DNA of 64,000 bases, taken from positions 19,477 to 83,476 of IMG/VR virus record IMGVR_UViG_3300021256_000087. The stretch is one strand, 5' to 3'. Every line of letters begins with the position of its first letter. Within the stretch, counting starts at the first letter, position 1. Shown here one piece after another: positions 3,001 to 28,175 of the stretch. The stretch is from a virus. Taxonomy: Duplodnaviria > Caudoviricetes. A program made the position numbers and the translations under genes. The notes beneath the pieces were generated by a model, which saw only the letters and a program-made list of their open reading frames with translations, ran no database searches and had not been told where the DNA came from.

Positions 3001-3343
3001 ACGTATCAAAATGAGACAAATCTAATTCCGTAGCCTTACTACTGTTAAACATAAAACTCATATCTGTAACCTTAGAGGTATTAAACACGTCAAGTCCTAA
3101 TATAGTTTCAGACATACAATTATCGAACATGGATCGCATAGTTGTAACTTTTGATGTATTAAAATTTCTTAAATCTAAAGTCTCAGGTAGTTGATAATTT
3201 GCCCCCGAAAACATATTACTCATATCAATACAATTATCGGTACGTATATAAGGTATTACTTTATATCTCCATGTTAGGTGATTATAACCCTCGAGCGTGA
3301 TTTTATTACTTCCAGTATGAGAAGGAATATATACTTGTCCCAT
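1..3343 (-). CDS. BspA/DUF285-type leucine-rich surface-repeat protein, >1114 aa, 3' end beyond the window (absent from the ORF track)
   Basis: ATG at 3343 overlapping the stop of the upstream gene. Manual translation gives MGQVYIPSHTG..., repeated F(D/N)TSKVTxMxxMF units, later FxGCSSLTSLxGL units, and is still in frame at the left edge (...DISGMNQLASVF). Confidence 0.85.
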   Translation of the reverse strand, partial: MGQVYIPSHTGSNKITLEGYNHLTWRYKVIPYIRTDNCIDMSNMFSGANYQLPETLDLRNFNTSKVTTMRSMFDNCMSETILGLDVFNTSKVTDMSFMFNSSKATELDLSHFDTSKVETMENMFCDSSVEQLDISSFDTSKVTNMSNMFKNVEANIDISNFNTSLVTNMHGMFQGTSGTTLDLSHFDTSLVEDIGNIFYNTSYDEIDYSGFDTSNVVNMQNMFRNTSLDEIDVSGFDTSNVEDMSYMFAGTSLQTFVFPNTLDVSNVKDISGLFSNMTVPNLDLRGFHFQLPEAIEPNTSYQKSLFSGLNTNILDISDWDLGANASNAPYGNAEHGTWETLFSYANIHDLRFSNNNTFPEGYNVSGMFNNFITDGTLDLSSFHFYKAIMMFIYPLCIFGNAKIHTLILPDITNNTFDLSVYSNIRIFENTAVELLDWSNAELNINNGNQLFNGLTATRVNMPNKICTDVDVNTKTGKAKYVDYSSVNTLNADYTSDQWAYMANYGLDYTKIVWIPSTFILDSRRTMNITTGEIYTDALNYSELGWNEEPSNVIIHYGTTHNDFEQAIINDDADEWVAPNGSPIFFCHTHVPLGSAYTQYQMMTMSGLNLNEVYLDDELVTEGQVFDTVGTHTLKITVGGYDYKQKIIVEDHGNSYSVVGSPYDYTWNSSSGTYTSTTSTTIQCRLYPDNYLFVYPLNSISNSVTAYTRVESTPSNNIVKISGLPFGLRKFSLQNSSRLTDISEMIVISDPFDPSDMFNMCTSLVNVSVVNKWSIGIHYNYYYKSGSRVNQQWAYYNYSRMFQNTQVITAPKIRISLGSSSVFRNCAALTDISNLDYFNTSPAQGTTNRSLTSLFYGCTSLSNVDRLKVLFTKLKENMGMNPIELSSFLSNTAITNVDFIPDEGLRVKNLESTFSNCSYLTNLSGLARIIWPLSGATFARAFDNIPATDYSSLANWNSMFTEIQMPTTKISNLSFLSNWDLSACIYYSFEGCTLLSSISVLSGKISTTKQVEVNLKNCTALTSLSGLEGCKFSTSTSFNGCSALINLDGLDGCTIKNGTSLFANCSSLTDVSGLANTTFTSSNINYMFQGCSSLTSLNGLQVIDISGMNQLASVF

Positions 3344-3344
3344 T

Positions 3345-11411: not shown

Positions 11412-14400
11412 TTAGATAGAGTATTTACTCAATTTGCTTTTTCCTAAAGCAGTACCTATAGTTATATTCTGAACCAGCTTTTCGAATTGAGGATCCTTCT
11501 TTGCCTTATTAACAAAGTCTTCGTAACTTGTTACATTGGGCAGTGAGAAGGATACATTCATTCCATTAATTGTGGTTCCAGAAGTAATATTACTTAACGT
11601 ATTAGCTGGCAGTGTCGCCAGAGGTTGCATCATCTTAAAGATACTTTGCATCTGCTTTATACGCTCAAGGCTAAGTACTTCTTCACCGGTACGGGCGAGA
11701 ATAATACCATCCTCTCCAGTACGCTTAATAGCAGATCCAATTGTACCGCCCTTAGCATAAGCTGCATTTTTTAAAGTATTAGCTTCTTTTATAGCTGCCA
11801 CTGCTTGAGCATGGTAAAATTGTACGTTCGCCAAATAACCTTGCCATTTATCATATACAGCTTGTTTATTTGCTCCGCTCAAAGCAGGAGGTAATGACTT
11901 ATATTTTTTCTCTTCTGATTTTGCCAATTGTCTGTATTGTTTTTCTAATTCAATATATTTCTGATACTGCTCTTCGAGTTCTTGTATTTTTCTAATATTA
12001 ACAGATTTTTTAGATTTTTCTTCTCCTTCGGAAGGGTCTTCTCCTTGTATTCCATCAGTCGTGACCTGAGGAGAATTATTTGTTCCGTTATTGGATCCAT
12101 TATTATTCCCATTATTTTGTCCGAGCTGAGCAATCTGATTTGCAATCTGTGCTGCTTGATTTGCAGAAGAAGTAGCCACTGCATTTGCAAGCGCACTAAG
12201 AGCATTCAGTTGATTCTGAGCGTTGACATTAGCATCGGTGTGCATACCTTCAATCACAGCCTTCACCGCATCAACAGCTCCAACAGCATCGCTAATCTTC
12301 ATATCGAAATTAATTCCGAAAGAAGTGTTCTCAAGATCGTACGGAAATTCATCGAGCTCCTGTTGAATACTTTGTTTTATTGTCTCACCACTTGCAGCGG
12401 TCTGGTCAATAGCTTGTGCCACCAGTTTATCGAGATTATCAAGACGATCATCTATGAGTTTCTCAAACGCCTCATACATGTTATCCATCATTTCTTCTTG
12501 ATCAGAAAGCCACTTATCATACTCTGTTTGCTGTAAGTCTTCTTCTGCCTTCTTAAGGTCGTCGGCAAGCTGTTGTAAACGAGCACGATTCTCTTCGGAA
12601 TTATCTCCTCCAAGCGCCGCTAACTGTTGCTGATAATTTGTTATAGCTTCAGTTTGCTCTCTGACATTTCTCTCATAATCATAAAGATTCTTTTCAGCCT
12701 CTAAAGCTTTCTTACGGTAGTCTATAGACTTCTGTAAATAATCAAGGAATGTCTCGTACCCTTGTTTAATTAAATCTCTGATGGCTTGCTTTTCAGAAGA
12801 GATACCTTTGATAATATCTCTCCACTGATCTATAAGTTCGTTGCGCCTGTCAAGCAACTTCTTATTGTTAGGATCTTTCACAAGATCAGCATTAATCTTT
12901 TCTATCTCTTCGGCATAATCCTTGGCTTGCTCGGTAAGGGTCTGATAACTATTAACGTGCAAACCTTGGACAGAAAGAGCGGCGTCACTCATATTGCCGT
13001 TTGCATATAAGTTCTCGCCGATAAGAGCGTTCTTCTCGAACATCATAGCCTCATCCTGAAGGATGTCGATAAGGAACTCATTCTCTTCAGTAAGGCGACT
13101 AACCGAATCTTGAATGTAATCAAACTTATCCCATTCAAGTTGTCTAATCTGATCATTATAACCAGCGATATTAGATTGAAGTTCTAAGACTTGATCGTTG
13201 ACATTTTGAAGACTATCATACATTCCCCACCACTGTTCGGAACCATACTCAATGTCACCATTGGATACGGCCTCATCAATAGATGCGGCGAGTTGTTGTG
13301 CTTCATCTTGAAGTTGACCAAGCTTATCTTCAGCACCCGCTCTAAGCTGTTCGATTAAAAGCGTAGATTCAAAATATCCTTCTGATTCTATTGTACTCTG
13401 TATATGACCAATACGTGTTGCAGCATGGTCAATGCTGAGCGCCATCTCTTCGAACTGCTTAGTAATGTAATCAAATCTAGTTTGTGCGAGCTGAGCAATC
13501 TCCCCACGCAAATCTTCAACAGCATCTGCGGCATCAGTGGATTTATCATAATATTCTTGGAAGTCACTAATTTGCTCTTTGAGTTTTTCGTCAGTAACAG
13601 TTTCAATATCCATAAGGCCATTCATAACTTTACTACGATACTCAGCACTTAATCCAATTGCATTAGCCTCTGCCATATAGGCCTGTGCGGCTTGCTCTTG
13701 GAGAGCGATTTCTTCCTTGAGTTTCTGATATTTGCCTGATGTAAATTTATCGTAATCAGCATAAATAGCTTCTTGCTGAAGATGTAATCTTTCAGCATAA
13801 TCATCCGCTTCTTCAAGGGTGTCAAATATACCTAAGTATTCACCGGTGTTATGATATCTATCAAGTGCCTCATCACTGGTCATCTCATATGGATTACCAA
13901 GCTCGTCCCAGTCAATGGTTGGAACTAAAACAAATTTACCATCCTCTTCAAAGGATTCACTTAATACAGTTTCTACCCAAGATTCACCGTTTTCTTCTTG
14001 CCAAAGCTGAGGTCTATTATACAGATCAATATTGCCACGACCAAACTGACCAATCTCGTCATGGAACTCTTCGGTCTTACCCATAAGGGCGTCAATTCTA
14101 TCGCCCCACTTCTTATATGTTGCATCGGCAACCTTACCGAGATTAGTGACAGCACGCTGGATTTTCTTAATCGCGCGCTCAATCCAGTCGAACTTCTGCT
14201 TAGAGTCACCGGACTTGTCATTATCGACCATGGTATTGGCATCCCATTTTACATCAGGTTTCCAATCCACCTCGACACTACTAATTGCGTTTGCAACTTC
14301 ATCTCTAAGTTCATTGGCTTCCTTTAAATATTGAGAAGCAGTATATGAACCGGATCCTAAATTTTGAGCAACATGTTCAAGATAATCGGCTCTTGCAAGT

Positions 14401-17400
14401 TTTTCTTCTGCCTTTGCAAGTTCAAGAGTTCCAACGGTAGCTATTCCAAGAGACTTATACAATTTGATGAGATTATTGACATCTTCCTTAGTCTCAATTG
14501 TAATACTATTTGCAAGTATTCTTCCCTTATAATAGTTTAATAAAGCTTCATTACTGAGAATAAGTTGTATTTGCTCTTCGGTTAAATCACCAATTTCAGC
14601 GTCAATATCTATCTCGTTTTTGTTAGCCTCTTCTTTTGCAGCAGCATAAGTTTCTGCACTATATCCTAATCTTGAGAAAAGAACATCCGCTGCATTCGTT
14701 ACACCCATTTCGGTTAATGTCTTCTGAACAAAAAGTGCAGTTTCTCCTGACGCTTGCCCAAGAGCAGGATTTAAACTATCTACAAGTGTAGTAGCCAATC
14801 CATTAAATGCATCATGAGCTTCTTTCTCTGTAGTTGTCGCATCTGATAATGTAAGAATGAAATCATTAATCTGATCTGTAGAGAAGCCTTCAAGACCTTT
14901 TTCTTTCAAATCATTATTTAATGATTCTACTTGGCTTCTGACACTTTCTAACTGTTCAGACGTTACCTTAGATATATTAAATCCGGAATCGCTCCAAATA
15001 GCTTTGTACGCAGTAGCCATAGCATCAAACATAGGCTTATACTGAGCTTCCATGTTTTTAAGCATGGTGGATGCGTCAGATGTTTTCTCTAAGCCGGATG
15101 TTTCAAGCTTATACATGGCGACCGCCTCAGCAGCCGACGTAGCTTGTTCTGCTATATTTTTCCATATTGTAAGTTCTTCATCTGTACCTATTCCTAAGGC
15201 ATCGAAAGAAGATCCTAACATACCAAATCTACTTGCGGCAGCATCACGATAACTTTGATAATCGTCTTCAAATGTAAGTTGATTATTTTCTTTGAAAAGT
15301 CCTTGACTATAAAGCCTATCAAGAGCTTGAGTATAATCTACTCCCATGGCGTCGAAGGTATCTTTGAGGAGCTTAAGCCATCCTTGTTGATCATTTGAGA
15401 ATCCTGACAGATCTCCTCCTGTGAGATAATTTAATATTTGAGTTTTACTCAAACCACTATCTCCAAGCCACTTTCCAACGGCTTCCGCTCTGTCACCTAA
15501 ATTAGCGCCATTTTCAGTTTGTTTATTCCAATACTCATCGAGATGCGCATTCTCAATCTCGTCGGCATATGTTTTAAAGAATGATCTTAACCATTTCTTT
15601 GCGCCCTCATCATTAGCATCAGACGCAATTTCCCACATTGTCATGAGATTATCTTTAAGAGCTCTTTCTGTTTCTTCTGTGGGATTCTGAAGATTCTCAT
15701 AGTATGAGTTCATCAAGGATTCATACTCAGAGTAGTGTTCTTTAGCCATTCTGTCTTGGGCCGCAATTAACCACTCATCAAGATATTCCTCTTCATCTTT
15801 GCTCATTTGATCAAGAGCGCGCTGAATAAAATCAGAAGCTGCATCGGTACCTATCCGGCCTTCATATTCTTCTCTGCCCAATTCCATTTGAGCTTGAGTA
15901 AGCATTGTTTTGAGTTCATCATAATTAGCGGCTTCAAAATCTATCATACCCAATCGCATGGTTTGTAGATTATTATTTTTTAACACCTCTTTAGGTAGGA
16001 TATCTTTTAAAACATTAAGGGCTAATTCTGCAGATACGGTATTTGTAAATATACCTAAATTAGACCCAGTTCTACCATTAAAGACGCCTTCGGCAGTAGA
16101 GGCTCTATCGCTTCCAGACCCAATTGAACGCCAGTTAAAAGTTGATTCAGATTTTCTAGCAGCTTCTCTATTCTTGAGTATTTGATTCTCAATTAGCAGT
16201 TGGTTTTGTTCTTTTAGATCGCTATTTGCGTTCTGAATTACAGTACTATAATTTCCATATGTCTCATTAAGTTCTTGTTGAATAGTTATTAATTCGTTCT
16301 TAGCATCTCTGATCTGCTCAGTGGTTGAATTCTCATCTCTAAGAACTCTATTAGCTTCCCCTATACGCTTAGCATAATCATCAAGAGATTTATTTGATTT
16401 GGCTGTTTCTTTGGCAAACTCTTTTGAGGCCTGTTGTGCTTCTTGATATTTCTTAATCGCGTAATTTATCGCTGTGACGACGGCTGTAATTCCTATGGTT
16501 ACAATTAATCCTTTTATCGCCGGCTGTAAATCTTTCTTGGCAGATTCGCTTAAAGCATTTTGTGCGTTTTCTAATTTTCTTTCACTATCCGTTAATTTAT
16601 CGGTTGCACCAGCTAACGTATTCCAAGCCTCATCCGCATTATCAAATGTTTCCTTTAAATTTTCAGCATCAATATCAGTATCTTGGAAAACTTGATCAAG
16701 ATCCTTAAAATTTTCTAAGGCTGATGTGTAATCAACTTTATCTAAATCATATTGCTGCTGAGCATAATTAGCATTTTGTCTAATCTGGAAATATCTTTGT
16801 ATTCCACCATTACTTCCCACTAACCCAATTCCAGCACCGGCGGTAAGAGTGGGTAATAATCCGACTTTACCAACTATTTCAGTTAATACATTTAACAATT
16901 CCGTTAACGCACTTATTGCATTTTTAACAGCATCTGTGTCAATAAACTCTTGCCAGAAATTCTCACCGGCAGTTTGAAGCTGAGTCATACGTCCCTGAAT
17001 TGAATCAACTATGTGCGCATTTTCCTCCATAGCAGATCCTTCAGATTCTTCAATGGATTTAAGAACATTATCAATCTGCTTGTAGTTCTGCAGCATTGCA
17101 GCAAGAGCGTTTGATCTATTCTTACCAGCAAGTTTTTCAAGCATCGCGGTACGATCGATATCTGACATTTCATCATAGACCTTACCGATACCTTTAATAA
17201 TATCCGCAAGAGACTTAAAGGTATCTTCATCTTCCATGATGTCAAAGCCTTCGTACTTCCCATTTATGCTAGTATAACCCTTGATAAGCTCTCTAAGTTT
17301 AGATGTAGATTTTACAACATAATCTGTTTCCTCGCCCATTTCCTCAAGTTCGGAAGATGCGCCTCTAATACGGAGAGCGATAGTTCTAAGTGCAGTACCA

Positions 17401-20400
17401 GTCTTTTCAGGATCCTGAAGGATTTCATTACCGGCAGTAATAAGAGCGATAGATTCATTAAATGAAGTATTAGATGCCGCAAGTACCGAAGCGGAACGCT
17501 GCATTGCATCTCCAATATCAGTAGCGGAGAGAGCAAAGTGGTTACCTATTTCGTTATACTTATCTACGATTGACATTGCGTCATCAGCCGTAATATTGAA
17601 CGCTTTCATGGCGGTGATCATCATATCGGTAGCACCCTTGATATCAACACCGTCTCCAACATTTACAAATACACGTGCGTCCTTTGCTAACTCTGTAGCC
17701 TCTTTAATAGAGTATCCTAAGCGGCTCCAGTCTGCAGCCGACTGTATTAAATCAGCATTTGTTGAAGCAACATCGACAGCTGTTGAACGAATTGTATCTC
17801 TAAATTCTGAGTATTCTTTCTCAGTAGCATCAGTAACTTTACGAAGTTCGACCATTGCGGTGTCGAGCTCTTTTATGGTATTAACACCGGTACGAACATA
17901 ACGAATAATATCGTACAGTGAAAAATATCTAGCAATTTGAGCAGTAAACTGTGCCTTTAAACTCTTACCAATTCTAGTAAAAGCATCTACACCATATACG
18001 CCTAATTGCTTGTATTTTGAGCCAAGATCCATAACCTCGGCTTTTATATTATCATATCTTTCTCTATTAATACCTTCAACAACTTCATCGGCCTTTTTGC
18101 CTTCTACTCTTAATAATTGTAATTCATTTACTAAATTATAAATTCTACTTCTATCGTCTGCTGAAACACCTCGTCCTCGTGTGTTGTTTTGTAGTTCGAT
18201 AGCATCATTTAATAATTTAGAAACTTGGGAAGCTTTAACCGTAACATTTTGATCACTCTGTGCTTCTATGAATCTCTTTCTGTAATCTTCAAGACTTCTA
18301 TAAGCTTTTCTGATGATCGCCTCAGCACCTTCTCCGGCATTTTCTATATTTAATAATTGTCTTATTAATTCTTTAGCTTGAGCCGATTCTTCGTCAACCG
18401 TATTCTCAAATGCTTTTGTATATCCAAATCCTTGTTGCCTTTTTCGAACCATTGAGTTCGAAATATCTTTTTGGATCTTTCCGATTTGTCTGGCAAGATT
18501 AGCCCCGACCTCTTGATATTCGCTGTTAGATCCTAATATGCTTTCAACAAATTCACTACCAACATCTTTGCCACGAGCATATTCTCTAATAGCATTATAT
18601 GCCACATTTAATTTTGACGTAAGATTATCAATATATCCTTCATCAGCATCGGTATCAAATTTAGCTTCAGCAATAAGTTTACGAAGATTATACGTTCTTT
18701 GATATTGCGTATTTATCTCTTTAATGTTTTCAATAGTAGAAGAAAGTTCATCACCTTCTTGTACTAATTTAGCATAATCTTCGGCGCTTCTAATATCACC
18801 GGCTTTAAAATCCTGCAACCTTCCAATATGTTCATTCATTCGGACGTTTATAGAATTGATAGTCCCCAAAACGTCATCTCCGATACTATCGCGTATTGCA
18901 GCATTCATAAGAGACCGGAGTTCTTCGATGCGTCTATCAATCACGCCAGTGTCTACAATTTTGACACGGCTACTTGCATTAGTAGATTGCTTGACAAGAT
19001 CTTTAGCATTATCTATGTATTGCTGTCCATCTGCTAATGCCTCTTCTACTATAGAAGTATCAGATTCGCCAAATAATACATTTTCTAATCGCTCGACAAT
19101 ACGATCCCTCGCTTCGATAATATTGCGTGCGTTGCCCATAAACTCTTCGGAATATATTATGCCTTTATCAGTGTTGTTTTTGATATTATCAACAAGTTTA
19201 TCTCCATTTTCCTCTATATCTTTTAATATTTTTTCAGCAACAACACGATTGGCTTCTGCGGTAATTTTGTCCAGTTCTATATTTTTCTCTTCATCGGTCG
19301 TTAATCTTGAACCTTCAACATAGGTGCTGAACAGCTTATTAAAACTATCTTTCTGTTTTGAAATACCACGATTATCTCCGGAAAGTCTCTTAGTTTGAAT
19401 CTTTGCTTGTAATTCTACAAGGTTATTGTACGCTGTAAGTTTACCGGCATCTAAACTATTTTTGGCAACTAGCTTTGAATACCTATCATTAAACCTACGC
19501 CACTCTTTAAGATCCGCTCTGTTTGTTGGATTATCATAATTAATTAAATCTTGTTTTAATTTCTTTAAACCCTCGATATCTCGATTTTCTCCGGATCTTA
19601 TAATAATCCTATCAATTTTATTTAAGAACTCAACTACCTGATCGTGAGTGATAGCTTTCCGTTCCTCAGCCCCTTCACTATTTTTCGCATCAGCATTAAT
19701 ACTATCCGCCTGAACGTTCACGACATTTGTCTTTAATACTTCTGTATGATTAGTATCAACTATTGTGACATGAGGAGAACTAATTACTATTCCTTCCTCT
19801 GTGCCAACAATTTTAGGTTCAGTCTTAGGTTCATTGGTATCGGATTTCTTTATTGATTTTCTTTCTTTAGGAGGTTCTTTCGGAGGTTCCTGAGACGTTT
19901 TAGGCTTTTGCTCAGACTCGGCTTTATTCTTAAATTTATTATCAGTATATTCTTTACCAAAAGTCCTTCTTATTGCAAGTTTGAATTCATCAATGGCTCT
20001 CGCCGCCGTACTAACTTTAGGAACTATACTATTCCACAAATCCAATTCTTGGGCGTTACTTATCTTTAATGAATCGAATTGTTTCTCTGTCATTAAACCG
20101 GAATCAATAGCTTTTTTACGAGCAATAGGAAGCTGAGACTCCAGATATAAGGACTCTATTGCAGAGTCAAAATTCGTCTTTAATTTATCTAAATTTTTCT
20201 GAGCAGCGTTATAATCATCTTCTTCTGCTTTGAATGGATTATGTATCGATTTCATAACATCAGTAAAGATGGTGATTGCCTCACGTATATCAGTCAATAA
20301 AGATACTTCCTTGGCGTCTCCCTTAGGATCAGGTTCCCCTTCTTTTGCCTTCGCTATATTTTTAGCTAATGCGTTATAAGAGATCCATTCAGAAAGTTTT

Positions 20401-23400
20401 CCTTTTTCGTCTAATCTAGAAACACTAACATCTCCGCCATATTTTGATAATATTCGCGACATAGTGGTATTAATGATATCAGACTGTACAGACTCCAAAT
20501 TGTCCTCAAAATGCCAAACCATCCTACCTTCTTCATCTTTGTCGATGCTATCTTTGAATCCCGCATCTCGCAGAGCTTTAATGATTTCACTTGACATTTC
20601 ATCAAATAATTGAGAATGTGTGATTTTAGACCAATCAATATTACTATAATCCATTTTGAGAAGTGTATCACCATGTCCTAAATACTCAATTTTAGATTTT
20701 CTCTTGCTAGCAGCATAAAGATCTGCATAGCTTGGAGCTAAATCGTCAGAAGATCCCCATGGATGCGTATGAAAATATATGCCAGACTTGGAATAAGGGA
20801 CAACAACAGAGGTTTCGTCTCCTACTACAGCTTCCCCACCGAAACCAAATTCATTATCAACATGACCAAATGTTTTCAGCATATCAATAATTATGGCAAG
20901 CTCATCTTTATACTCACCATTTACCATTCGAGTATTTATCTGACCCACCATAGCAAACATTTGATCTCTACTCATACCTTCAGGTTTTACTGAAAAATCA
21001 GTTTTATCCCGCAAATTTTTAGGATCAACAGCGTAATGATTTATCTTGTCCTCCAACAAATCCATAGACTTACGAAGCTCTAGATATTCCGCACTTAATT
21101 GTTTTTTTTCTTCAATTAATTTAAGTTCTTCATTGTGTTTTAATTTAGTGAAATCTTTTACCTCATTAAGTTGCGTGTTTAATCTATCTCGATCTTTTAC
21201 CGCAATATAATCGTCTCTCTTTGTAATTAGATTATTTCTTTCTCGTTCTAATTTAGATACTTCTTTTTTATCGCGAGTATTATTCTCATCAGAAAGATAT
21301 TCATTTATCTCGTTTATTCTATTTACTAATGTCCTATAATCCTCTGGCGTTATTGCCCGAAGAGATGCTATATATTTTTTAGAAAATTTGCTTAACTTTT
21401 GATCTAAACTTTTTATTCTCTGAGGATTCTCATCGGCAATTTTGGCTTTTGCAAAATATTGATCTATCTCAGACATTCTACCCGATAATTTAGATAATTC
21501 TTCTTTTCCAGAAGCAAGGGTTTCCTTATCTTTCTCTATAATTTGATCAAGATAAGTTTTAATAAATTTCTGAACCAATGTCTTATCGAACGCAGTTACT
21601 TTATCGTATTGGTCTTCTGGCAAAGCCATTAATTTAGCCCAAGTTTCCTCATCATAAAGACCCGCTTCTTTAAGACGCGCAAGTTGAGTTTCTTTAACCG
21701 CTTTTTGGGCATTTTCATATTCAATCTTTTTTTGCTCTGTAATGGCTTCTTGAACTTCTATCTCTTCATGCAGCGCCTTGATTGAGTTCATTGTCTCTAA
21801 TTTCTTTTGTTCTTCAAGTTTCGCTGCTTGTTCTGCTTGTCTTGCCTTTTCTTTATCTCTTTGACGTTGACTTTCAGCTATTCTTTCTTCAGCTTCAACG
21901 ATCATATCTTCCCGAGTCTTTGGTTCAACGGAGCCCGACGAAGGTTCTTCCGGTTTTATAGGAACCATCGTAGTATTTCTACCAGATTGTTCATGCGCCC
22001 CTGCCATTGTTTGCTGGAATCTTCTATCCATGGTCGCAACAATATCTTGAACATTGGTAAAATGCTTAAAGTCTATTTTACGATTAGGATCTATCTGAGT
22101 AACGTTTGCCAAAGTATTGTACTCTTTAAGGAAGCGTTGATGGTACACCCAATATGCATATAAATATTTACGCTCTTTTTCCATAGCGTCCATTTTTGCA
22201 GCTATTTCTTCTTCTGTGTTCTCCGACATCGAAGCTGCGTCCAACGGAATCTCTCCTATAAGTTTCTTTTTATATGCTCCTGCTTTATAACCATCAGGCA
22301 ATTCGGCTTTTAATCGGTCTAATTCTTCTCTCCACGCTTGATCTTGTTCTGCATAATATAATTGTATTTCATTGAATTTATCAAATGGAATACCGTATGT
22401 ATTTTCACTATAAGATATTCTTTCTTTTTTTCTGCTAAATGTTTTCTGAAGAAATAATTCTCGTTCCAGTGATTTCAAATATTCTTCGTCTGGGTCATCC
22501 ATTCCTCTTACGGTCTCAATTTCGAGAGCTAATTGTGTAATCCTATCATTTTGATTTTTAATAATATTTCCGACAGTACGACCCTGTAAATAAGAAGTCA
22601 TTCCCTTTGTTATATCTTTTTGCTGAGAAAGAGCTTTGACATAACCTTGGGTTTTTTCTAATTCTTTCTTTATTTCCCTAGCACGGGCTTTATTCTCTGC
22701 TAAATTATTATATTCATTTTGCAGCATCTCTCGCGCATTTGGAATAACCGCTCCTTCTTCAGCTGCTTCAGCCATATCTGCCTTTAACCCTTGGATTCTA
22801 TTTGAAATGTCATTGCTAGTATTAGCAGCCTTACGAAGAGCTTGCGAAAGATTTTGTTCTTTTATCTGAAGAGTCTCTAATAAAGAATCTGTAAAATCTG
22901 TTTGAACAGCATCTATAAATCTTTGCTCCTCAGGGGAAAGCTCTTCTCCGGCCAAATATTTCGTTAACATATCTCTTGTGGCTACCGCGTCTCGATAAAC
23001 CGGAGATTTTTCAGGGTCTCTTCCTGCCTCGGCCAAAGACTCTTCCATTTGTGTAATTTGATCTTGAACGTGATCCAATAATTGATTAACATTATCTTTT
23101 AATCCAGTATTAAAATCATCTCTTCTGTCATACATAACAGAGTGGGGAGTCTCGGTAGCATCGTCTATTTTTCGTAATTCTTCTCCATATTTATCCATTG
23201 CGAATCTACGTTGATCTATATCAGGATATACTCCTTGATACATTTCCTCAACGTCATTTGATTTTATATCGAGATCTATTGTACGTTTTAATTCTTGAGC
23301 CGTTTCCGTATTTTCTTTTATAGTTTCAGCAAGAGCCTCATTAGAATTTACAACCTTATCCTGACTATTTTCTTCGGCTTTAATTTCTTGGGCAACTTCT

Positions 23401-26400
23401 TGTATTTTAGCACCTGCATTATCTATATTTTCTACACCCTTAATCTCTTGCTCAGTTTCTTGTGTCTTTACAATTGTTTTTTTTGACTCTTTTTCCAGAG
23501 AAGCCTTTCGCGCTTCGTCTTCTTGTCTTCGTATTTCGGCAATACGTTCTTCCTCTTTTCTTCGCGCTGCTGCTTCGGCAACTCTTTCTTCTTCTAATTT
23601 TGCCGCCTCAGCATCTTCTTTCTCTTTAAGCCTTTGCTGCTCTTCGGTTAAAATTATAGAAGGAGAATTATTTAATTTATTTTGTTCGAGAACCCTAGCT
23701 CTAGATCCCTCGCGCTCAAGATCATCTTTTTCTCTTTGTTCAGCAAGTGTTTGCCGTAGTCTTTCTTTATCATTTTCTGTTGCGTTTTGTCTCCATTCTA
23801 GTACTTTTCTCCCCCATTCACTTCCTACGGTTTGTTGTCTCTGTTCTTTTTTTTCATCAGATTTTTGACTAGTATCCGAAGTGACAAAAATAGAGTCCTC
23901 AATTTTATCTAGTATATCTTTGGATATTTCTTTATTTATATCTACACCTAATTTATCTCTCTGATGTACTTCAGCTATTAATAATTTAAGATATTCGGTA
24001 TTTGCCTTAAAAAAGTCTGTAGCATCCGAATATTCTATTTTATCACTATCACCTACTGCAATATTGAAATGATCGTTTGTTCCAACAAGACCACTCATTA
24101 ATGATTTTATATAAGTACGAGGGGATTTAAAATTCTCTACTTTTTTATTACCATGTTCTTTTAATGCCAATGCTTTGAGATCGTTAATCACATCACCAGT
24201 AATATCTTTTTCTATTGACGCGGTTATATCATCCGCAAAAATTCTAGCTTTTTCAATCCATTTATGGTTGCTTTCATTATGCAAAACAGAGTTCCCGCTT
24301 TTAGGATCTACTATACCGAGAAAAGATACCCTCCTCGCGGCTTCTTTCCGATCCGCCTCTTTGTTATACGTTGCAGTAATCCCCTTCATGTCAGCCAAAG
24401 CTCTGAGTTTAAGCTTATCGTCATCAGATACCTCATCTCCAATGAAGAGTCTTTTTCGTATCTTATTCATCTCATTCAAGATTTTATCGTAATCCAGTTG
24501 TAATATTTCTTCTCCAAACTTGTAACCAGCCTCATAAAATTTATGGATAAAAGATTTAGGGTCTGCTAATTTCTCATCGAATTTTTTTTGTGCTGTTTCA
24601 TAATCTGTGTCCGTATTTACCGGTATTAATTTAACTTCATTTTTATGTTCCGAAATATTATGTAATACATCATCATTTCCGCTTATCTTATCCGCGGCTT
24701 CTAATATTTTTTCTGCAGCAGCGTTAATGTTAGCTGCAGCTTGCTCCATAGTGACAGACGAATCTTTATATCCAGAGAAAGCATCTCTAATATTGTCGTT
24801 TATCTCTTCGTTGGCTTTCCATACTTCGTTGGTTTTATCATCCACGAAATTATTTCCCCTAAGTGTTGCCGTGCTGAGTTTACCTCCAAATTCAGCCAGA
24901 ACATCTTCAACAGCATTTCTCACCGCAGAAGAAATAGCCTTATCTTTTCCTCTAACAGTTTCAAATTCAGTGGTTCCAGTCCGTTCATCTTTTATAATAC
25001 GGCCACCATTTGCAACCGCCGATTTAAAGATTCTGTCGATAATTTTATTTTCTAATTCATCAGGGGATATTTTGCTCCAATCAATTCCACCGAAATCCAT
25101 TTTTAACAAACGTTCTCCGTGTGCTATATACGCTTCTTTAAGATGAGCTTCTCCCGTGAGCATTAAATCATTTCTGATATGACTCATATAGCTACGGATA
25201 TCTTGAGCACTGGGCGCAAATGCGTCATACCCGAGTAACGGATGAGTGTGAAAATTTACTCCCAATCTTTTATTGGAAATCCTAATTTGATCCTCTTCTC
25301 CTTTGATTATTTCTTTACCATTAAATCCAAATTCGGACACCATTTCGTCCTTAAAATTTTTAACAATATCTTTAATAATCTCAAAATAATCACCGACCTC
25401 ACCGAGATCTTTATTCATAGATTTAACAGTCTGAGATAATTTCAAATTTTTTACTTCCTTTTCAGGATCAGCCATAAAATCTAGATTAAGACTATGGAAC
25501 TTAGACACAACATCATCTACTTCTTTTATCTTATCTCTTATGAGCTTTTCGATGTCTTCTCCGTAACCGCCATACTTTGTAGTTCTATCTCCAATATAGC
25601 TCATAATGTGATCCTTAACTTTAGCGTATAACCCTTTTCTAGGATCTTTTGCTGTTTTTTCTTCTATGCCAGCTCTTAAAAGAGTGCCCATTATAGCTTC
25701 AATTTCACCATCGGTAATTTTATCTTTTTCGTAATCCCTTCCTTCTCGGCCCAGATATTTGTCAAGATTACCGATCAAAAAATTCAAAACGTCTCGATCA
25801 GTTTTTTTGTTATTTCGAGCATCTTTCGCGGCGAGAGCATATCTTTTTAAATTTATGTTTTTAGCTGCCTTAACAGATTTAAATATTTCTGCGTCGTCAG
25901 AAAACAAAGACCCAATATCTAATTGATTCACTTTAGAAGCGAACTCGTCTAGATTATTTTTTACAGATTTCAATTCATCAAAATAATCAAAAGAAGTTGA
26001 AAAGCCTTTCAATAAATCTTTATATAGTCCTTTCCAATTTGAATTAAATCGCTCAGCTATAAAAGCTTTTTTAAAAGTACGCTCTATTGCTGAAAGATCT
26101 TCTTCAGAAAGCGTATTCTTATCTTTAACGAGATCTTCTAAATACTTATCAAGATCGACATAAAAATTAGCATGTGACTTTGTGCGATTTTTTTTTAAGT
26201 CTTCTATTATAGAACTATCAATCAAAGGCTCTTCTGTGTAGTTCCTTTTGCTTTTATTATTTTTCTTTGCAGGAGAACTCTTTTGAGGAACAACCTCTTC
26301 TACAACTTGAACTTTTTTTACTACCGGCTCTTCTTCCATTTTTTCTATATATTTCTGAATAGCCCGTACTTCTTTTTCGAAATTCTTTTTATTAAGTTTT

Positions 26401-26423
26401 ACGTTAATTTCATAATTGGCCAT
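11412..26423 (-). CDS. giant tape measure protein (~5003 aa) with N-terminal cargo region, two JAB/MPN-like domains and an inserted domain
   Basis: TP901-type TMP core (ELDTAMVELRKVTD...SAADWSRLGYS...DKYNEIGN...GTALRTIALRIRG) starts near nt 17870; C-terminus AYAKGG...ARTGEEVL; start set at the ATG with GGAGGTG RBS. Confidence 0.9.
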   Translation of the reverse strand: MANYEINVKLNKKNFEKEVRAIQKYIEKMEEEPVVKKVQVVEEVVPQKSSPAKKNNKSKRNYTEEPLIDSSIIEDLKKNRTKSHANFYVDLDKYLEDLVKDKNTLSEEDLSAIERTFKKAFIAERFNSNWKGLYKDLLKGFSTSFDYFDELKSVKNNLDEFASKVNQLDIGSLFSDDAEIFKSVKAAKNINLKRYALAAKDARNNKKTDRDVLNFLIGNLDKYLGREGRDYEKDKITDGEIEAIMGTLLRAGIEEKTAKDPRKGLYAKVKDHIMSYIGDRTTKYGGYGEDIEKLIRDKIKEVDDVVSKFHSLNLDFMADPEKEVKNLKLSQTVKSMNKDLGEVGDYFEIIKDIVKNFKDEMVSEFGFNGKEIIKGEEDQIRISNKRLGVNFHTHPLLGYDAFAPSAQDIRSYMSHIRNDLMLTGEAHLKEAYIAHGERLLKMDFGGIDWSKISPDELENKIIDRIFKSAVANGGRIIKDERTGTTEFETVRGKDKAISSAVRNAVEDVLAEFGGKLSTATLRGNNFVDDKTNEVWKANEEINDNIRDAFSGYKDSSVTMEQAAANINAAAEKILEAADKISGNDDVLHNISEHKNEVKLIPVNTDTDYETAQKKFDEKLADPKSFIHKFYEAGYKFGEEILQLDYDKILNEMNKIRKRLFIGDEVSDDDKLKLRALADMKGITATYNKEADRKEAARRVSFLGIVDPKSGNSVLHNESNHKWIEKARIFADDITASIEKDITGDVINDLKALALKEHGNKKVENFKSPRTYIKSLMSGLVGTNDHFNIAVGDSDKIEYSDATDFFKANTEYLKLLIAEVHQRDKLGVDINKEISKDILDKIEDSIFVTSDTSQKSDEKKEQRQQTVGSEWGRKVLEWRQNATENDKERLRQTLAEQREKDDLEREGSRARVLEQNKLNNSPSIILTEEQQRLKEKEDAEAAKLEEERVAEAAARRKEEERIAEIRRQEDEARKASLEKESKKTIVKTQETEQEIKGVENIDNAGAKIQEVAQEIKAEENSQDKVVNSNEALAETIKENTETAQELKRTIDLDIKSNDVEEMYQGVYPDIDQRRFAMDKYGEELRKIDDATETPHSVMYDRRDDFNTGLKDNVNQLLDHVQDQITQMEESLAEAGRDPEKSPVYRDAVATRDMLTKYLAGEELSPEEQRFIDAVQTDFTDSLLETLQIKEQNLSQALRKAANTSNDISNRIQGLKADMAEAAEEGAVIPNAREMLQNEYNNLAENKARAREIKKELEKTQGYVKALSQQKDITKGMTSYLQGRTVGNIIKNQNDRITQLALEIETVRGMDDPDEEYLKSLERELFLQKTFSRKKERISYSENTYGIPFDKFNEIQLYYAEQDQAWREELDRLKAELPDGYKAGAYKKKLIGEIPLDAASMSENTEEEIAAKMDAMEKERKYLYAYWVYHQRFLKEYNTLANVTQIDPNRKIDFKHFTNVQDIVATMDRRFQQTMAGAHEQSGRNTTMVPIKPEEPSSGSVEPKTREDMIVEAEERIAESQRQRDKEKARQAEQAAKLEEQKKLETMNSIKALHEEIEVQEAITEQKKIEYENAQKAVKETQLARLKEAGLYDEETWAKLMALPEDQYDKVTAFDKTLVQKFIKTYLDQIIEKDKETLASGKEELSKLSGRMSEIDQYFAKAKIADENPQRIKSLDQKLSKFSKKYIASLRAITPEDYRTLVNRINEINEYLSDENNTRDKKEVSKLERERNNLITKRDDYIAVKDRDRLNTQLNEVKDFTKLKHNEELKLIEEKKQLSAEYLELRKSMDLLEDKINHYAVDPKNLRDKTDFSVKPEGMSRDQMFAMVGQINTRMVNGEYKDELAIIIDMLKTFGHVDNEFGFGGEAVVGDETSVVVPYSKSGIYFHTHPWGSSDDLAPSYADLYAASKRKSKIEYLGHGDTLLKMDYSNIDWSKITHSQLFDEMSSEIIKALRDAGFKDSIDKDEEGRMVWHFEDNLESVQSDIINTTMSRILSKYGGDVSVSRLDEKGKLSEWISYNALAKNIAKAKEGEPDPKGDAKEVSLLTDIREAITIFTDVMKSIHNPFKAEEDDYNAAQKNLDKLKTNFDSAIESLYLESQLPIARKKAIDSGLMTEKQFDSLKISNAQELDLWNSIVPKVSTAARAIDEFKLAIRRTFGKEYTDNKFKNKAESEQKPKTSQEPPKEPPKERKSIKKSDTNEPKTEPKIVGTEEGIVISSPHVTIVDTNHTEVLKTNVVNVQADSINADAKNSEGAEERKAITHDQVVEFLNKIDRIIIRSGENRDIEGLKKLKQDLINYDNPTNRADLKEWRRFNDRYSKLVAKNSLDAGKLTAYNNLVELQAKIQTKRLSGDNRGISKQKDSFNKLFSTYVEGSRLTTDEEKNIELDKITAEANRVVAEKILKDIEENGDKLVDNIKNNTDKGIIYSEEFMGNARNIIEARDRIVERLENVLFGESDTSIVEEALADGQQYIDNAKDLVKQSTNASSRVKIVDTGVIDRRIEELRSLMNAAIRDSIGDDVLGTINSINVRMNEHIGRLQDFKAGDIRSAEDYAKLVQEGDELSSTIENIKEINTQYQRTYNLRKLIAEAKFDTDADEGYIDNLTSKLNVAYNAIREYARGKDVGSEFVESILGSNSEYQEVGANLARQIGKIQKDISNSMVRKRQQGFGYTKAFENTVDEESAQAKELIRQLLNIENAGEGAEAIIRKAYRSLEDYRKRFIEAQSDQNVTVKASQVSKLLNDAIELQNNTRGRGVSADDRSRIYNLVNELQLLRVEGKKADEVVEGINRERYDNIKAEVMDLGSKYKQLGVYGVDAFTRIGKSLKAQFTAQIARYFSLYDIIRYVRTGVNTIKELDTAMVELRKVTDATEKEYSEFRDTIRSTAVDVASTNADLIQSAADWSRLGYSIKEATELAKDARVFVNVGDGVDIKGATDMMITAMKAFNITADDAMSIVDKYNEIGNHFALSATDIGDAMQRSASVLAASNTSFNESIALITAGNEILQDPEKTGTALRTIALRIRGASSELEEMGEETDYVVKSTSKLRELIKGYTSINGKYEGFDIMEDEDTFKSLADIIKGIGKVYDEMSDIDRTAMLEKLAGKNRSNALAAMLQNYKQIDNVLKSIEESEGSAMEENAHIVDSIQGRMTQLQTAGENFWQEFIDTDAVKNAISALTELLNVLTEIVGKVGLLPTLTAGAGIGLVGSNGGIQRYFQIRQNANYAQQQYDLDKVDYTSALENFKDLDQVFQDTDIDAENLKETFDNADEAWNTLAGATDKLTDSERKLENAQNALSESAKKDLQPAIKGLIVTIGITAVVTAINYAIKKYQEAQQASKEFAKETAKSNKSLDDYAKRIGEANRVLRDENSTTEQIRDAKNELITIQQELNETYGNYSTVIQNANSDLKEQNQLLIENQILKNREAARKSESTFNWRSIGSGSDRASTAEGVFNGRTGSNLGIFTNTVSAELALNVLKDILPKEVLKNNNLQTMRLGMIDFEAANYDELKTMLTQAQMELGREEYEGRIGTDAASDFIQRALDQMSKDEEEYLDEWLIAAQDRMAKEHYSEYESLMNSYYENLQNPTEETERALKDNLMTMWEIASDANDEGAKKWLRSFFKTYADEIENAHLDEYWNKQTENGANLGDRAEAVGKWLGDSGLSKTQILNYLTGGDLSGFSNDQQGWLKLLKDTFDAMGVDYTQALDRLYSQGLFKENNQLTFEDDYQSYRDAAASRFGMLGSSFDALGIGTDEELTIWKNIAEQATSAAEAVAMYKLETSGLEKTSDASTMLKNMEAQYKPMFDAMATAYKAIWSDSGFNISKVTSEQLESVRSQVESLNNDLKEKGLEGFSTDQINDFILTLSDATTTEKEAHDAFNGLATTLVDSLNPALGQASGETALFVQKTLTEMGVTNAADVLFSRLGYSAETYAAAKEEANKNEIDIDAEIGDLTEEQIQLILSNEALLNYYKGRILANSITIETKEDVNNLIKLYKSLGIATVGTLELAKAEEKLARADYLEHVAQNLGSGSYTASQYLKEANELRDEVANAISSVEVDWKPDVKWDANTMVDNDKSGDSKQKFDWIERAIKKIQRAVTNLGKVADATYKKWGDRIDALMGKTEEFHDEIGQFGRGNIDLYNRPQLWQEENGESWVETVLSESFEEDGKFVLVPTIDWDELGNPYEMTSDEALDRYHNTGEYLGIFDTLEEADDYAERLHLQQEAIYADYDKFTSGKYQKLKEEIALQEQAAQAYMAEANAIGLSAEYRSKVMNGLMDIETVTDEKLKEQISDFQEYYDKSTDAADAVEDLRGEIAQLAQTRFDYITKQFEEMALSIDHAATRIGHIQSTIESEGYFESTLLIEQLRAGAEDKLGQLQDEAQQLAASIDEAVSNGDIEYGSEQWWGMYDSLQNVNDQVLELQSNIAGYNDQIRQLEWDKFDYIQDSVSRLTEENEFLIDILQDEAMMFEKNALIGENLYANGNMSDAALSVQGLHVNSYQTLTEQAKDYAEEIEKINADLVKDPNNKKLLDRRNELIDQWRDIIKGISSEKQAIRDLIKQGYETFLDYLQKSIDYRKKALEAEKNLYDYERNVREQTEAITNYQQQLAALGGDNSEENRARLQQLADDLKKAEEDLQQTEYDKWLSDQEEMMDNMYEAFEKLIDDRLDNLDKLVAQAIDQTAASGETIKQSIQQELDEFPYDLENTSFGINFDMKISDAVGAVDAVKAVIEGMHTDANVNAQNQLNALSALANAVATSSANQAAQIANQIAQLGQNNGNNNGSNNGTNNSPQVTTDGIQGEDPSEGEEKSKKSVNIRKIQELEEQYQKYIELEKQYRQLAKSEEKKYKSLPPALSGANKQAVYDKWQGYLANVQFYHAQAVAAIKEANTLKNAAYAKGGTIGSAIKRTGEDGIILARTGEEVLSLERIKQMQSIFKMMQPLATLPANTLSNITSGTTINGMNVSFSLPNVTSYEDFVNKAKKDPQFEKLVQNITIGTALGKSKLSKYSI

Positions 26424-26465
26424 AAAACACCTCCACAAAAATAAAAGAGGCGTCCTTGACACCTC

Positions 26466-27158
26466 TTAACGTTTTTCTTCTATTAACTTTTCTATATCTT
26501 TATCTAGATCTTTGGATATCTCTTTCCATTTGGCATCCAAATGTTTCTTCGTAGTAATTTTCTTATATCGTTTGCCCATTTCCTTAAAGGGCAAGATATC
26601 AGAATCAGGGGGTATAATATTCGCATCGTATATGTTTTTTAATATCCTTCTTCTACTTGGACGATCTGGATTACCTTTTAAATGATATTTGATATAATAT
26701 TTTTTCTGACTTTCTTTCGTAGTATACCATTTTTCGGAAACTATCTTTTTGTTATATCCAATGATTCCATGATAAAACATCATTTCAAATACTGCATTTT
26801 TATCATAGGGTTCTCCTTTATTTTCGCCCCAACGTGAAAAGATTTCTCCACGTATATTGCTAGACTCTACATTAACCCCTGATTTAAACCAGTCACTCTC
26901 CGAAGTATCAATTTGTATTCCACGATTATTTCCAATATCATTATAAACATCTGAAGCCTTCAATAAAAACCGCGTTTTATCATAATCTTTACCAGAATTT
27001 TTCGCCCAATTAATATAGGCCTCCATAAAATCTTCGTAAACTTCTTCGTACGCTTTTTCAATTTCTTCGACAATTTCTTGAGTAAATTGTTTGGCGTATC
27101 TTCTGAATTGCGTGTTAAGTACGTCCTTTATCCTCCCTAACTCCGTTCTCTTCGCCAT
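26466..27158 (-). CDS. hypothetical tail-morphogenesis protein
   Basis: Basic protein immediately upstream of TMP; GGAGGT RBS. Confidence 0.5.
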   Translation of the reverse strand: MAKRTELGRIKDVLNTQFRRYAKQFTQEIVEEIEKAYEEVYEDFMEAYINWAKNSGKDYDKTRFLLKASDVYNDIGNNRGIQIDTSESDWFKSGVNVESSNIRGEIFSRWGENKGEPYDKNAVFEMMFYHGIIGYNKKIVSEKWYTTKESQKKYYIKYHLKGNPDRPSRRRILKNIYDANIIPPDSDILPFKEMGKRYKKITTKKHLDAKWKEISKDLDKDIEKLIEEKR

Positions 27159-27657
27159 TGGTACTACCTCCATTAATTTGATTCAAGGCCATCTTTTCAA
27201 CAGCACTTTGCAGTATATTATCCAAACCCAATATAAGATTTTTTATACGACCTTGAATAGAGTTTACGTTTTCATATTCATCATCATAAATATTGTCTAC
27301 AATATTCATAAATGTCATAACATCTTTTTTAGGTAGAGCAGACATAAGTATATCCTCGTATCCCTTTTCAGATAATATATTATAATCCTTTAATGTATCA
27401 TCAGAAAAAGTTAAGTCCGTATACATTCTAATTAAAGCAAGCACAGTAAGAAAATGTTGTTTATTGGAATCAACCCAAAATATTTTTTGAATCTTTCCTT
27501 CCGCATCAACAATATCCTTATAGCATGCCATCTCTATAATTTTATGACCTTCAGCAATCTTTTCTTCAAGAGGAACATATTGTCTTGTAATATGTTTCTG
27601 TATAACACCCTCTTTATGATCACTGTTCATTTGTTTAACAAACATTTCTATATTCAT
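27115..27657 (-). CDS. putative tail assembly chaperone
   Basis: Helical 180 aa protein two genes upstream of TMP; call is by position only. Confidence 0.4.
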   Translation of the reverse strand: MNIEMFVKQMNSDHKEGVIQKHITRQYVPLEEKIAEGHKIIEMACYKDIVDAEGKIQKIFWVDSNKQHFLTVLALIRMYTDLTFSDDTLKDYNILSEKGYEDILMSALPKKDVMTFMNIVDNIYDDEYENVNSIQGRIKNLILGLDNILQSAVEKMALNQINGGSTNGEENGVREDKGRT

Positions 27658-27669
27658 GATTATCTCCTT

Positions 27670-28164
27670 TTATTCAAATAAATCATTGCATTCCGATAAC
27701 CAACCAGCTTCCGCAATGCATATCGCTTCAGCCTCATCGTCTCCACATTTTATCTTGTATGTTTTATTTACTTTCTTTATTGCTTCCTGTTTAAGTTCTT
27801 CACGTTTAAGTTTCGTACCATTCTTATTACATAGTTTTATTCCGGCTAAACTTCTCCACGCGGATGGAAGCATTTTGGTAAAATTACATTTCATATCTTG
27901 ACAAACATACATTACAGCTCCAAGAACATTTGACAACATCTTTGTTGTTTCAATATTTTGTTTATTCCATGAATCCTCTATGTATACAGCAGCGGGGGAA
28001 TATTCTTTTATAATTGCCCCCAATTCGCTCATCATATTCTTGACGCGTTGATCCGCATCATGATTGGATTTCATATTTATTGTATCGTGAAATATAAGTT
28101 TACCGTCTTCGATGACAGCAACTCCAGAACAAGTGGTACTAGCGTCAATGCCCATAACTTTCAT
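27670..28164 (-). CDS. ruvC: RuvC-like Holliday junction resolvase
   Basis: MKVMGIDASTTCSGVAV, VYIEDS, MLPSAWRS, DDEAEAICIA: RNase H-fold acidic catalytic motifs. Confidence 0.85.
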   Translation of the reverse strand: MKVMGIDASTTCSGVAVIEDGKLIFHDTINMKSNHDADQRVKNMMSELGAIIKEYSPAAVYIEDSWNKQNIETTKMLSNVLGAVMYVCQDMKCNFTKMLPSAWRSLAGIKLCNKNGTKLKREELKQEAIKKVNKTYKIKCGDDEAEAICIAEAGWLSECNDLFE

Positions 28165-28175
28165 AAGCAATACCT

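Follow-up and report, generated by a model that had tools for sequence, protein, structure and literature searches.

A tape measure protein with two divergent JAB/MPN-like modules in an uncultured, distant SPbeta-like phage

Two related modules in a tape measure protein

What are two related domains, each with the residue pattern of a JAB/MPN metal-dependent hydrolase, doing inside the tape measure protein (TMP) of a phage tail? The question is raised by a 64,000-nt stretch of viral DNA, positions 19,477 to 83,476 of IMG/VR record IMGVR_UViG_3300021256_000087, an 83-kb virus fragment that is ∼66% complete. The whole stretch is referred to here as the window, and positions are given within it. 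An initial annotation had proposed a tape measure protein with two JAMM-type metalloprotease-like domains about 1,500 aa apart. Residue numbers follow the 5016-aa numbering that begins at a GTG at position 26462. The features on which the question turns are as follows.

24843..25481, minus strand: JAB/MPN-like module copy 1, aa 328-540 (motif, paralogue alignment, AlphaFold model)
20388..20999, minus strand: JAB/MPN-like module copy 2, aa 1822-2025 (motif, paralogue alignment, Atlas leads)
11412..26423, minus strand: TMP gene (open reading frame (ORF) list, translation, PF10145, TMP PHROGs)

Both domains were recovered, 1,494 aa apart, as modules of about 210 aa that align with 30% identity over 211 columns (BLASTP, E 6e-22), a similarity that identifies them as paralogues. 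Copy 1 contains E377 within SEFGFNG (nt 25317-25337), H405 and H407 (nt 25239-25256) and S418 and D421 (nt 25200-25214), followed by IDWSK at aa 460-464 (nt 25065-25088). The corresponding residues of copy 2 are E1871 (nt 20835-20855), H1898 and H1900 (nt 20760-20777), S1911 and D1914 (nt 20721-20735) and IDWSK at aa 1942-1946 (nt 20619-20642). Across all 5016 residues the pattern HxH-x5..14-SxxD occurs at just two sites, one in each module.

Conservation of these residues was assessed in seven aligned copies, from this phage and its relatives, which are 27-46% identical to each other. All have HxH-x10-S-x2-D and H[TS]HP, as had been annotated for the two copies here. The Glu, HxHP, PSxxD and 15 further positions are invariant, and copy 2 keeps all 22 columns; two Tyr residues and IDWxK are likewise invariant. 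The motif residues, the two Tyr and IDWxK are also present in a relative that lies outside the alignment (P0004). Conservation of the motif is well beyond chance.

The identity of the surrounding protein as a TMP was borne out by profile searches and gene order. PF10145 (PhageMin_Tail) matches the C-terminal half with 85.7 bits (cut-off 33.2; E 5e-24), and the TMP family phrog_4211 matches with E 3.9e-71. Genes of the SPbeta families YonD_N, YonB, YomW and YomU_Tube precede the TMP gene in an order common to loci L001-L004, and downstream lie a DUF6558 Dit-like gene and then a 1288-aa Tal-sized gene. A TMP profile match, together with a position between chaperone-position ORFs and the Dit/Tal genes, is the combination expected of a TMP gene. 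The capsid protein is 26-31% identical to the capsid proteins of SPbeta-like phages and of large Bacillus and Staphylococcus siphophages. Because the TMP profiles and the gene order agree while capsid identity is just 26-31%, the protein is identified as the TMP of an uncultured, distant SPbeta-like phage. No prophage relative turned up when genome contigs were scanned for the major capsid protein, which left no clue to the host.

The uninterrupted open frame (26462..11412, minus strand) has 5016 codons from the GTG. Since a ribosome-binding site, GGAGGTG, lies at the proper distance before an ATG at 26423, and since the first residue of the closest relative, P0002, pairs with residue 14 in a BLASTP alignment, this ATG is most likely the true start, giving a protein of 5003 aa.

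The module is confined to a small group of phages. A profile built from the two copies was searched with HMMER against 1.84 billion representative proteins and found only five true relatives (P0002-P0006; E 1e-30 to 5e-45), all of them giant TMPs of 1647-5101 aa with one module copy each and all from the same uncultured SPbeta-like clade. Contig scans yielded one more locus, L005, closely similar to P0002; the family found here comprises six distinct proteins and L005. Scans of viral, genome and metagenome contigs, a word search of 5.8 billion proteins and tblastn of GenBank phages gave no further members beyond the clade; 185,579 species genomes held no module match, and the representative search, which covered all protein lengths, held no stand-alone homologue.

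In two of the loci the TMP gene is interrupted, by insertions of 1186 nt (L003:10941-12128) and 1482 nt (L004:7614-9097) that fall inside or just after the PhageMin_Tail region and hold ORFs of 325 and 396 aa without a Pfam family. As a result the module had seemed to be on a different ORF from the TMP core. On either side of each insertion, however, the reading of the TMP breaks off and is taken up again without a gap, exactly colinear with the TMP described here (aa 2913/2913 and 2973/2974; tblastn). These interruptions are intron-like insertions, as for self-splicing introns with a homing-type ORF, and not split proteins; a search of the two insertions with Rfam returned no intron family. 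Because the apparent splits are colinear insertions, the module is always part of the TMP chain.

Copy 1 is the apparent orthologue of the relatives' single copy. In a small tree with long branches, copy 2 falls weakly beside copy 1 (support 0.74) and probably arose by an old lineage-specific duplication.

Resemblance of the module to JAB/MPN domains

The fold of the module was investigated with an AlphaFold model of copy 1 (mf4a68facb82c; window 24828-25394) made from the seven-sequence alignment (pLDDT 84, pTM 0.83). The model begins with a helix and three short strands; next come a strand with HxH at its end, a loop, a long helix that starts with the Ser and Asp, a beta hairpin and a helix. 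The Glu precedes a strand, HxH lies at a strand end and Ser and Asp open the next helix, which is the order of JAMM domains; an extra C-terminal beta-beta-alpha-beta-beta part follows this core. When the model was compared with 48,161 PDB representatives, 19 of the 21 top entries were MPN-domain proteins (Sst2/AMSH, proteasome lid, BRCC36 complexes, RadC, PfJAMM1, CSN5, Cap3, AfJAMM and Npl4), and a second structural comparison returned the same list. Z-scores were 5.5 for Sst2, 5.0 for RadC (2qlc), 4.9 for PfJAMM1, 4.3 for Cap3 and 3.9 for AfJAMM. Identity in the structural alignments was 11-17% with stand-alone active MPN+ enzymes, 2-6% with BRISC/BRCA1-A and 8-10% with most proteasome and CSN proteins; the higher values for the active enzymes suggest that the motif residues superpose. 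Taken together, the comparisons indicate that the predicted fold is probably closer to MPN/JAMM structures than to any other in the PDB.

An earlier model, built from two sequences (pLDDT 64), had matched nuclease-like folds no less well than JAMM domains. This model, with mixed PD-(D/E)xK-like and other folds at Z of at most 5.9, was set aside for the seven-sequence one. A reading of MD...IDWSK as a PD-(D/E)xK nuclease site was also rejected, as the D-x-x-K spacing is unfit and the better model matches no such folds.

Sequence comparisons point in the same direction at sub-threshold levels. Prok-JAB matches two of the seven members (E 0.0099 and 0.25; best 16.2 bits against a cut-off of 25), and DUF4329 (PF14220) matches one (E 0.034; 14.5 bits against 28.6). 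An hhalign comparison with six Tox-JAB-2 phage proteins of the OP1 type gave 48.7% (P 1.8e-4, 41 columns), the best profile match obtained. Language-model leads from the Atlas named, for both copies, JAB-clan families only (Prok-JAB, DUF4329 and Toxin-JAB1; scores 0.82-0.87), and are used as leads only. The broad JAB/MPN order E...HxH...S..D is found in the seven aligned copies and in P0004, and the Tox-JAB-2 set of E, H[ST]H, S and D (PMC3482391, table) is found in all aligned copies.

Several results weigh against assignment to this superfamily or against an enzymatic role of the kind it would imply. No sequence method was significant for any JAB family: Pfam gave no family for this phage's own two copies, nor did PHROGs for each module, none of the seven members reached the PF14220 gathering score, and the Prok-JAB and DUF4329 matches cover only the HxHP..PSxxD stretch. 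PDB sequence searches with two- and seven-sequence profiles returned no JAB entry, their top matches, a xylanase and GDAP1, being noise. Alignment with a RadC set by hhalign reached 8.5% over 23 columns and required a three-residue gap; this set was drawn from phage RadC proteins, as a search with YeeS gave only near-identical enterobacterial RadC. The canonical JAMM signature is EXnHS/THX7SXXD, that is HxH-x7-SxxD (PMC300881), and the spacing here is 10, so that of the JAMM signature initially annotated the E/H/H/S/D set stands and the spacing does not. All structural Z-scores are 5.8 or lower (MPN entries 5.5 or lower), a range in which similarity can reflect a common arrangement; Foldseek found nothing in the PDB at E 1e-3 or better; and ORF273 of Acidianus two-tailed virus (ATV; PDB 4art/4ats) ties with the best JAMM match, over 156 residues at Z 5.4-5.8. 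A check of the annotated fold leans towards MPN by the ranking of PDB entries, with the low scores, the ORF273 tie and the empty Foldseek search weighing on the other side. As to partners, neither the TMP nor the flanking ORFs scanned gave a Pfam match to a ubiquitin-like (Ubl), E1 or E2 family, small beta-grasp domains being easily missed; no NlpC/P60 domain was found in the N-terminal 2500 aa (E up to 1) or the flanking ORFs; and no conserved Gly-Gly site was seen in the alignment across the junction where the module-bearing region meets the rest of the TMP. PF25310 (VG15), seen in an Atlas fold search, had no match in this record, and control genomes were also without signal.

Among known systems, the likeness appears closest to Tox-JAB-2/DUF4329, a small alpha+beta JAB-type domain with Glu, H[ST]H(P) and a downstream Asp whose His-to-Asp spacing is longer than in canonical JAMM and which is present in tailed phages and, by report, giant viruses (PMC3482391). 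Unlike the OP1-type set, which is without the Ser, the module keeps PSxxD; it has the extra C-terminal alpha/beta part with the invariant IDWxK; and it is internal in a TMP, whereas Tox-JAB-2 domains stand alone or form the tip of Rhs or type VI secretion toxins with an immunity gene. The phage example of Tox-JAB-2 named in PMC3482391 is ORF24 of Xanthomonas phage OP1. This gene (L018:20486-20857) is encoded on the strand opposite to the tail-fibre genes around it, with ORF23 on one side and ORF25, a tail fibre, on the other, and its family shows the motif EVCG...HTHP...D...PGYL, without the Ser of PSxxD.

The JAMM isopeptidases (Rpn11, CSN5, AMSH/Sst2, AfJAMM, PfJAMM1, BilC, and Cap3 of the cyclic oligonucleotide-based antiphage signalling system, CBASS) share the E...HxH...SxxD set, and the predicted fold can be superposed on theirs (Z 3.9-5.5, 11-17% identity). 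They differ in having x7 and not x10 and no significant sequence match, and the module is part of a virion structural protein, not of a conjugation operon. With RadC (PF04002; E. coli YeeS, phage RadC) the HxHP...PSxxD core aligns and the structure 2qlc matches the model with 16% identity, whereas the N- and C-terminal elements differ. Lambda gpK (TAPK) is a tail assembly protein that combines a JAB domain with NlpC/P60 and has a Ubl partner, gpI (PMC1779556). It too has a JAB-type motif (HSHP...SEAD) encoded in a siphophage tail cluster, but it is a separate small protein with NlpC/P60 and a Ubl gene, none of which was detected here, and sequence similarity is confined to the motif. ATV ORF273 is also a virion protein and gives the longest aligned stretch; its identity is 7-8%, its fold was described as new and has no known active site, and a relationship is unproven.

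The model was also compared with BFVD, where 13 matches at E 1e-3 or better (2e-5 to 1e-3) were uncharacterised mimivirus-like, algal and pitho-type giant-virus proteins (Harvfovirus, Bathycoccus virus, pithoviruses) and phage 'minor capsid' proteins; African swine fever virus F317L, frog virus 3 3R and IIV3 229L were weaker. The host groups of Tox-JAB-2 include mimiviruses, iridoviruses and algal viruses (PMC3482391), and the BFVD matches fit this range at the level of virus group. In the ESM Atlas the model also matches phage 'minor capsid proteins' of 520-610 aa and Mu F-family proteins. The giant-virus and phage matches hint at a wider, unnamed viral JAB-like family, some of it on other virion proteins.

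Homology to JAB domains is thus argued from the motif and from weak structural matches. Since the E/H/H/S/D set is invariant at 27-46% identity and the predicted fold is MPN-like, the module is best read as a new, very divergent clade of the JAB superfamily, nearest to Tox-JAB-2/DUF4329, and probably as an active metal hydrolase; we put the probability of this reading at about 0.65-0.7.

Architecture of the tape measure protein and possible roles of the module

The surroundings of the two modules were defined by alignment of the TMP with its relatives.

19797..26423, minus strand: variable N-terminal extension, aa 14-2222 (BLASTP against P0002-P0006, charge content)
19803..21113, minus strand: cassette of ∼437 aa with copy 2, aa 1784-2220 (no collinear counterpart in P0002)
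19812..19925, minus strand: Pro/Lys/Glu-rich low-complexity linker, aa 2180-2217 (junction alignment)
11415..19811, minus strand: conserved TMP core, aa 2218-5016 (alignment of relatives, Pfam, PHROGs)
17124-17795, minus strand: PhageMin_Tail, aa 2890-3113 (Pfam)

From aa 2221 to 5016 (∼2,800 aa) the core is 47-61% identical to P0002, P0004 and P0005 (BLASTP). The TMPs of the relatives span 3746-5101 aa. The N-terminal extension, in contrast, ranges from ∼1000 to 2325 aa among the relatives and differs in content; only the module, and patches besides, are clearly conserved in it. The charged-residue fraction of the extension is 0.29-0.45, and aa 1-2500 match no Pfam (E up to 1) or PHROG family. 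Residues 1045-1783 of this TMP (P0001) align with 560-1289 of P0002, and residues from 2221 onward with those from 1319 onward; copy 2 matches solely the single copy of P0002, out of order. The linker sits exactly where the core begins, a point at which the relatives, too, have linkers, rich in Pro or in Gly/Ser. Within the core, a segment of ∼104 aa (aa 4138-4241, with GNIDLYNRP; window 13740-14051, minus strand) falls between the two blocks in which the TMP aligns with P0002 and P0004, and has the look of an insertion within the helical C-terminal part. It is covered by a single P0005 block and matches no Pfam family at E up to 1.

By comparison with the superfamily, a metal ion, probably zinc, would be coordinated by both His of HxHP and the Asp of PSxxD, with water activated by the Glu of ExG[FY]xG and the intermediate supported by the Ser. 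Because the module belongs to the TMP polypeptide, it would be carried in the tail lumen, in several copies per virion set by TMP stoichiometry, with two modules per chain here. By analogy with other TMPs, ejection of the protein immediately before the DNA would carry the modules out with it, and they would act at or inside the cell being infected. In lambda, T5 and related tails the TMP points its C-terminus to the tip and its N-terminus to the head, and in this orientation the extension would leave the tail last. Enzymes within TMPs include SPbeta YomI (transglycosylase and M23), T5 pb2 and the Rpf motif of mycobacteriophage TM4. These resemble the present case in having a catalytic domain inside the TMP, hence carried in the tail and ejected, and differ in that they are wall hydrolases and not N-terminal. 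The bond attacked could be a peptide or isopeptide one, or could lie in nucleic acid, as has been suggested for Tox-JAB. Entry into the cell is an assumption drawn from what is generally known of TMPs, a point against the explanation as a whole, and the full account, of a divergent, clade-restricted JAB/MPN+ hydrolase module that is carried in the virion within the TMP and acts in or at the new host, is judged to fall slightly short of an even chance. Among roles, that of an ejected enzyme working at or within the new host is ranked first, followed by an assembly-time protease, a nuclease or toxin of the Tox-JAB type and a wall isopeptidase.

As a protease acting during assembly, the module would cut the TMP, for example at the linker before the core, or another tail assembly factor, trimming or releasing the extension before head joining. 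Phage tail assembly clusters are already known to include JAB domains (PMC1779556), and such a role would be analogous to the one proposed for lambda gpK on the Ubl protein gpI. The variable extension beside a conserved core, and the Pro- or Gly-rich linker exactly at the junction in four relatives, are also consistent with it. However, the Ubl or beta-grasp partner, NlpC/P60 domain and Gly-Gly site were not found in the TMP and scanned flanking ORFs, the data give no sign that the TMP is processed, and copy 1 lies 1,700 aa and copy 2 160 aa away from the junction, the distance of the module varying in the relatives. Processing is accordingly considered unlikely, if credible.

The module might instead be a virus-specific, non-JAB alpha/beta structural element, like ATV ORF273 or uncharacterised phage and giant-virus proteins, that acts as a bulky spacer or plug in the TMP, with a His/Asp cluster that holds a structural metal or no ligand at all. 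The tie of ORF273 for the top structural match (Z 5.8), with more of the model covered, speaks for such an element, and the lack of a significant JAB family by sequence and the atypical x10 spacing would fit. Invariance of the E/H/H/S/D set at ∼30-45% identity, the predominance of MPN proteins among the top PDB entries and the agreement of independent weak leads on JAB-clan families all argue against it, and a purely structural module seems rather improbable.

A third possibility is a Tox-JAB-2-like toxin or nuclease, injected with the TMP, that would cleave host DNA or RNA or otherwise poison the cell early in infection. The OP1-type proteins are the best profile match and share the H[ST]H motif and the longer His-to-Asp spacing; the DUF4329 match, the Atlas leads and the giant-virus matches in BFVD, which fit the reported range of Tox-JAB-2 (PMC3482391), point the same way. 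Yet the DUF4329 score is about half its cut-off, the hhalign value is below 50%, and nuclease activity of Tox-JAB and RadC is itself just predicted. The module also retains the PSxxD Ser that the OP1 set lacks, and it is internal, not a C-terminal toxin tip, with no immunity gene evident. An injected toxin or nuclease is therefore regarded as decidedly unlikely.

A virion-borne deconjugase is a further, speculative idea, in which the module, upon ejection or during tail assembly, would strip Bil-type Ubl tags from tail proteins or reverse Cap2-type priming of CBASS cyclases. It is attractive because the Bil system tags a tail protein, the central tail fibre (bioRxiv 10.1101/2023.09.04.556158). 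A deconjugase should not be taken as the default, because the apparently nearest clade, Tox-JAB-2/DUF4329, was predicted by its describers to be a nuclease and not a Ubl peptidase, divergent JABs being argued to be without a groove for the Ubl tail (PMC3482391). The lack of Ubl, E1 or E2 context in the scanned TMP and flanking ORFs also weighs on the idea, and the odds on it are long. If true, it would make the module the first anti-defence enzyme built into a TMP, and the duplication would reflect two substrate specificities.

Least probable is a cell-wall isopeptidase that would cut an isopeptide-type bond of Gram-positive peptidoglycan (cross-bridge to Lys or gamma-glutamyl) and help the tail cross the wall: characterised TMP-embedded enzymes are mostly wall hydrolases (T5 pb2, TM4, SPbeta YomI) and Pfam detected no other wall-hydrolase domain in this TMP, but the module is N-terminal, thought to be nearest the head and last to leave the tail, to our knowledge no JAB enzyme acts on peptidoglycan, and the unannotated Tal (1288 aa) may carry the wall-degrading function.

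Neighbouring genes and significance

Two overlapping ORFs lie directly upstream of the TMP gene, in the position of G/GT-type tail assembly chaperones.

27115-27657, minus strand: ORF of 180 aa
26466-27173, minus strand: ORF of 235 aa

The two overlap by 59 nt in different frames, and the same pair precedes the TMP gene in L001-L004. Neither has a family match, and from their position they are candidate G/GT chaperones, for which a programmed frameshift is plausible (26466-27657, minus strand). Between the chaperone-position ORFs and the TMP start codon (window 26430-26462, minus strand) are a GC-rich hairpin, AAGAGGTGTCAAGGACGCCTCTT, and then a T-run, TTATTTTT, which resemble an intrinsic terminator or attenuator directly ahead of a 15-kb gene. 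A RuvC-like Holliday junction resolvase gene (phrog_159/827; window 27670-28170, minus strand) lies within the tail module, between the tube-side genes and the chaperone-position ORFs. It occupies the same place in L001-L003 and is thus conserved in the clade. Two large proteins follow Tal (window 2-5504, minus strand). Their counterparts in L001 and L002 carry DUF285, a BspA-type leucine-rich repeat; the two proteins appear to replace classical tail fibres, and the arrangement is kept in the relatives.

The initial annotation knew of no characterised example of this architecture. No JAB-type module inside a TMP was found in the literature or databases searched, although JAB domains in phage tail modules have precedent in lambda gpK (PMC1779556). 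What is already known, therefore, is JAB domains in tail clusters, stand-alone Tox-JAB-2 beside tail-fibre genes (OP1 ORF24) and enzymes inside TMPs; what is apparently new, within the sources searched, is a JAB-type module that is inside a TMP, is duplicated and forms its own sequence family.

TMPs enter the cell with the earliest of the phage proteins, and any enzyme that forms part of one arrives before phage genes are expressed. The known TMP enzymes are wall hydrolases, and a JAB-type hydrolase would add a new class of activity to this delivery route. At ∼200 aa and with clear candidate catalytic residues, the module can be expressed without culturing the phage. It would connect to work on bacterial ubiquitin-like defence and to the question of what the divergent JAB clades (RadC, Tox-JAB) cleave.

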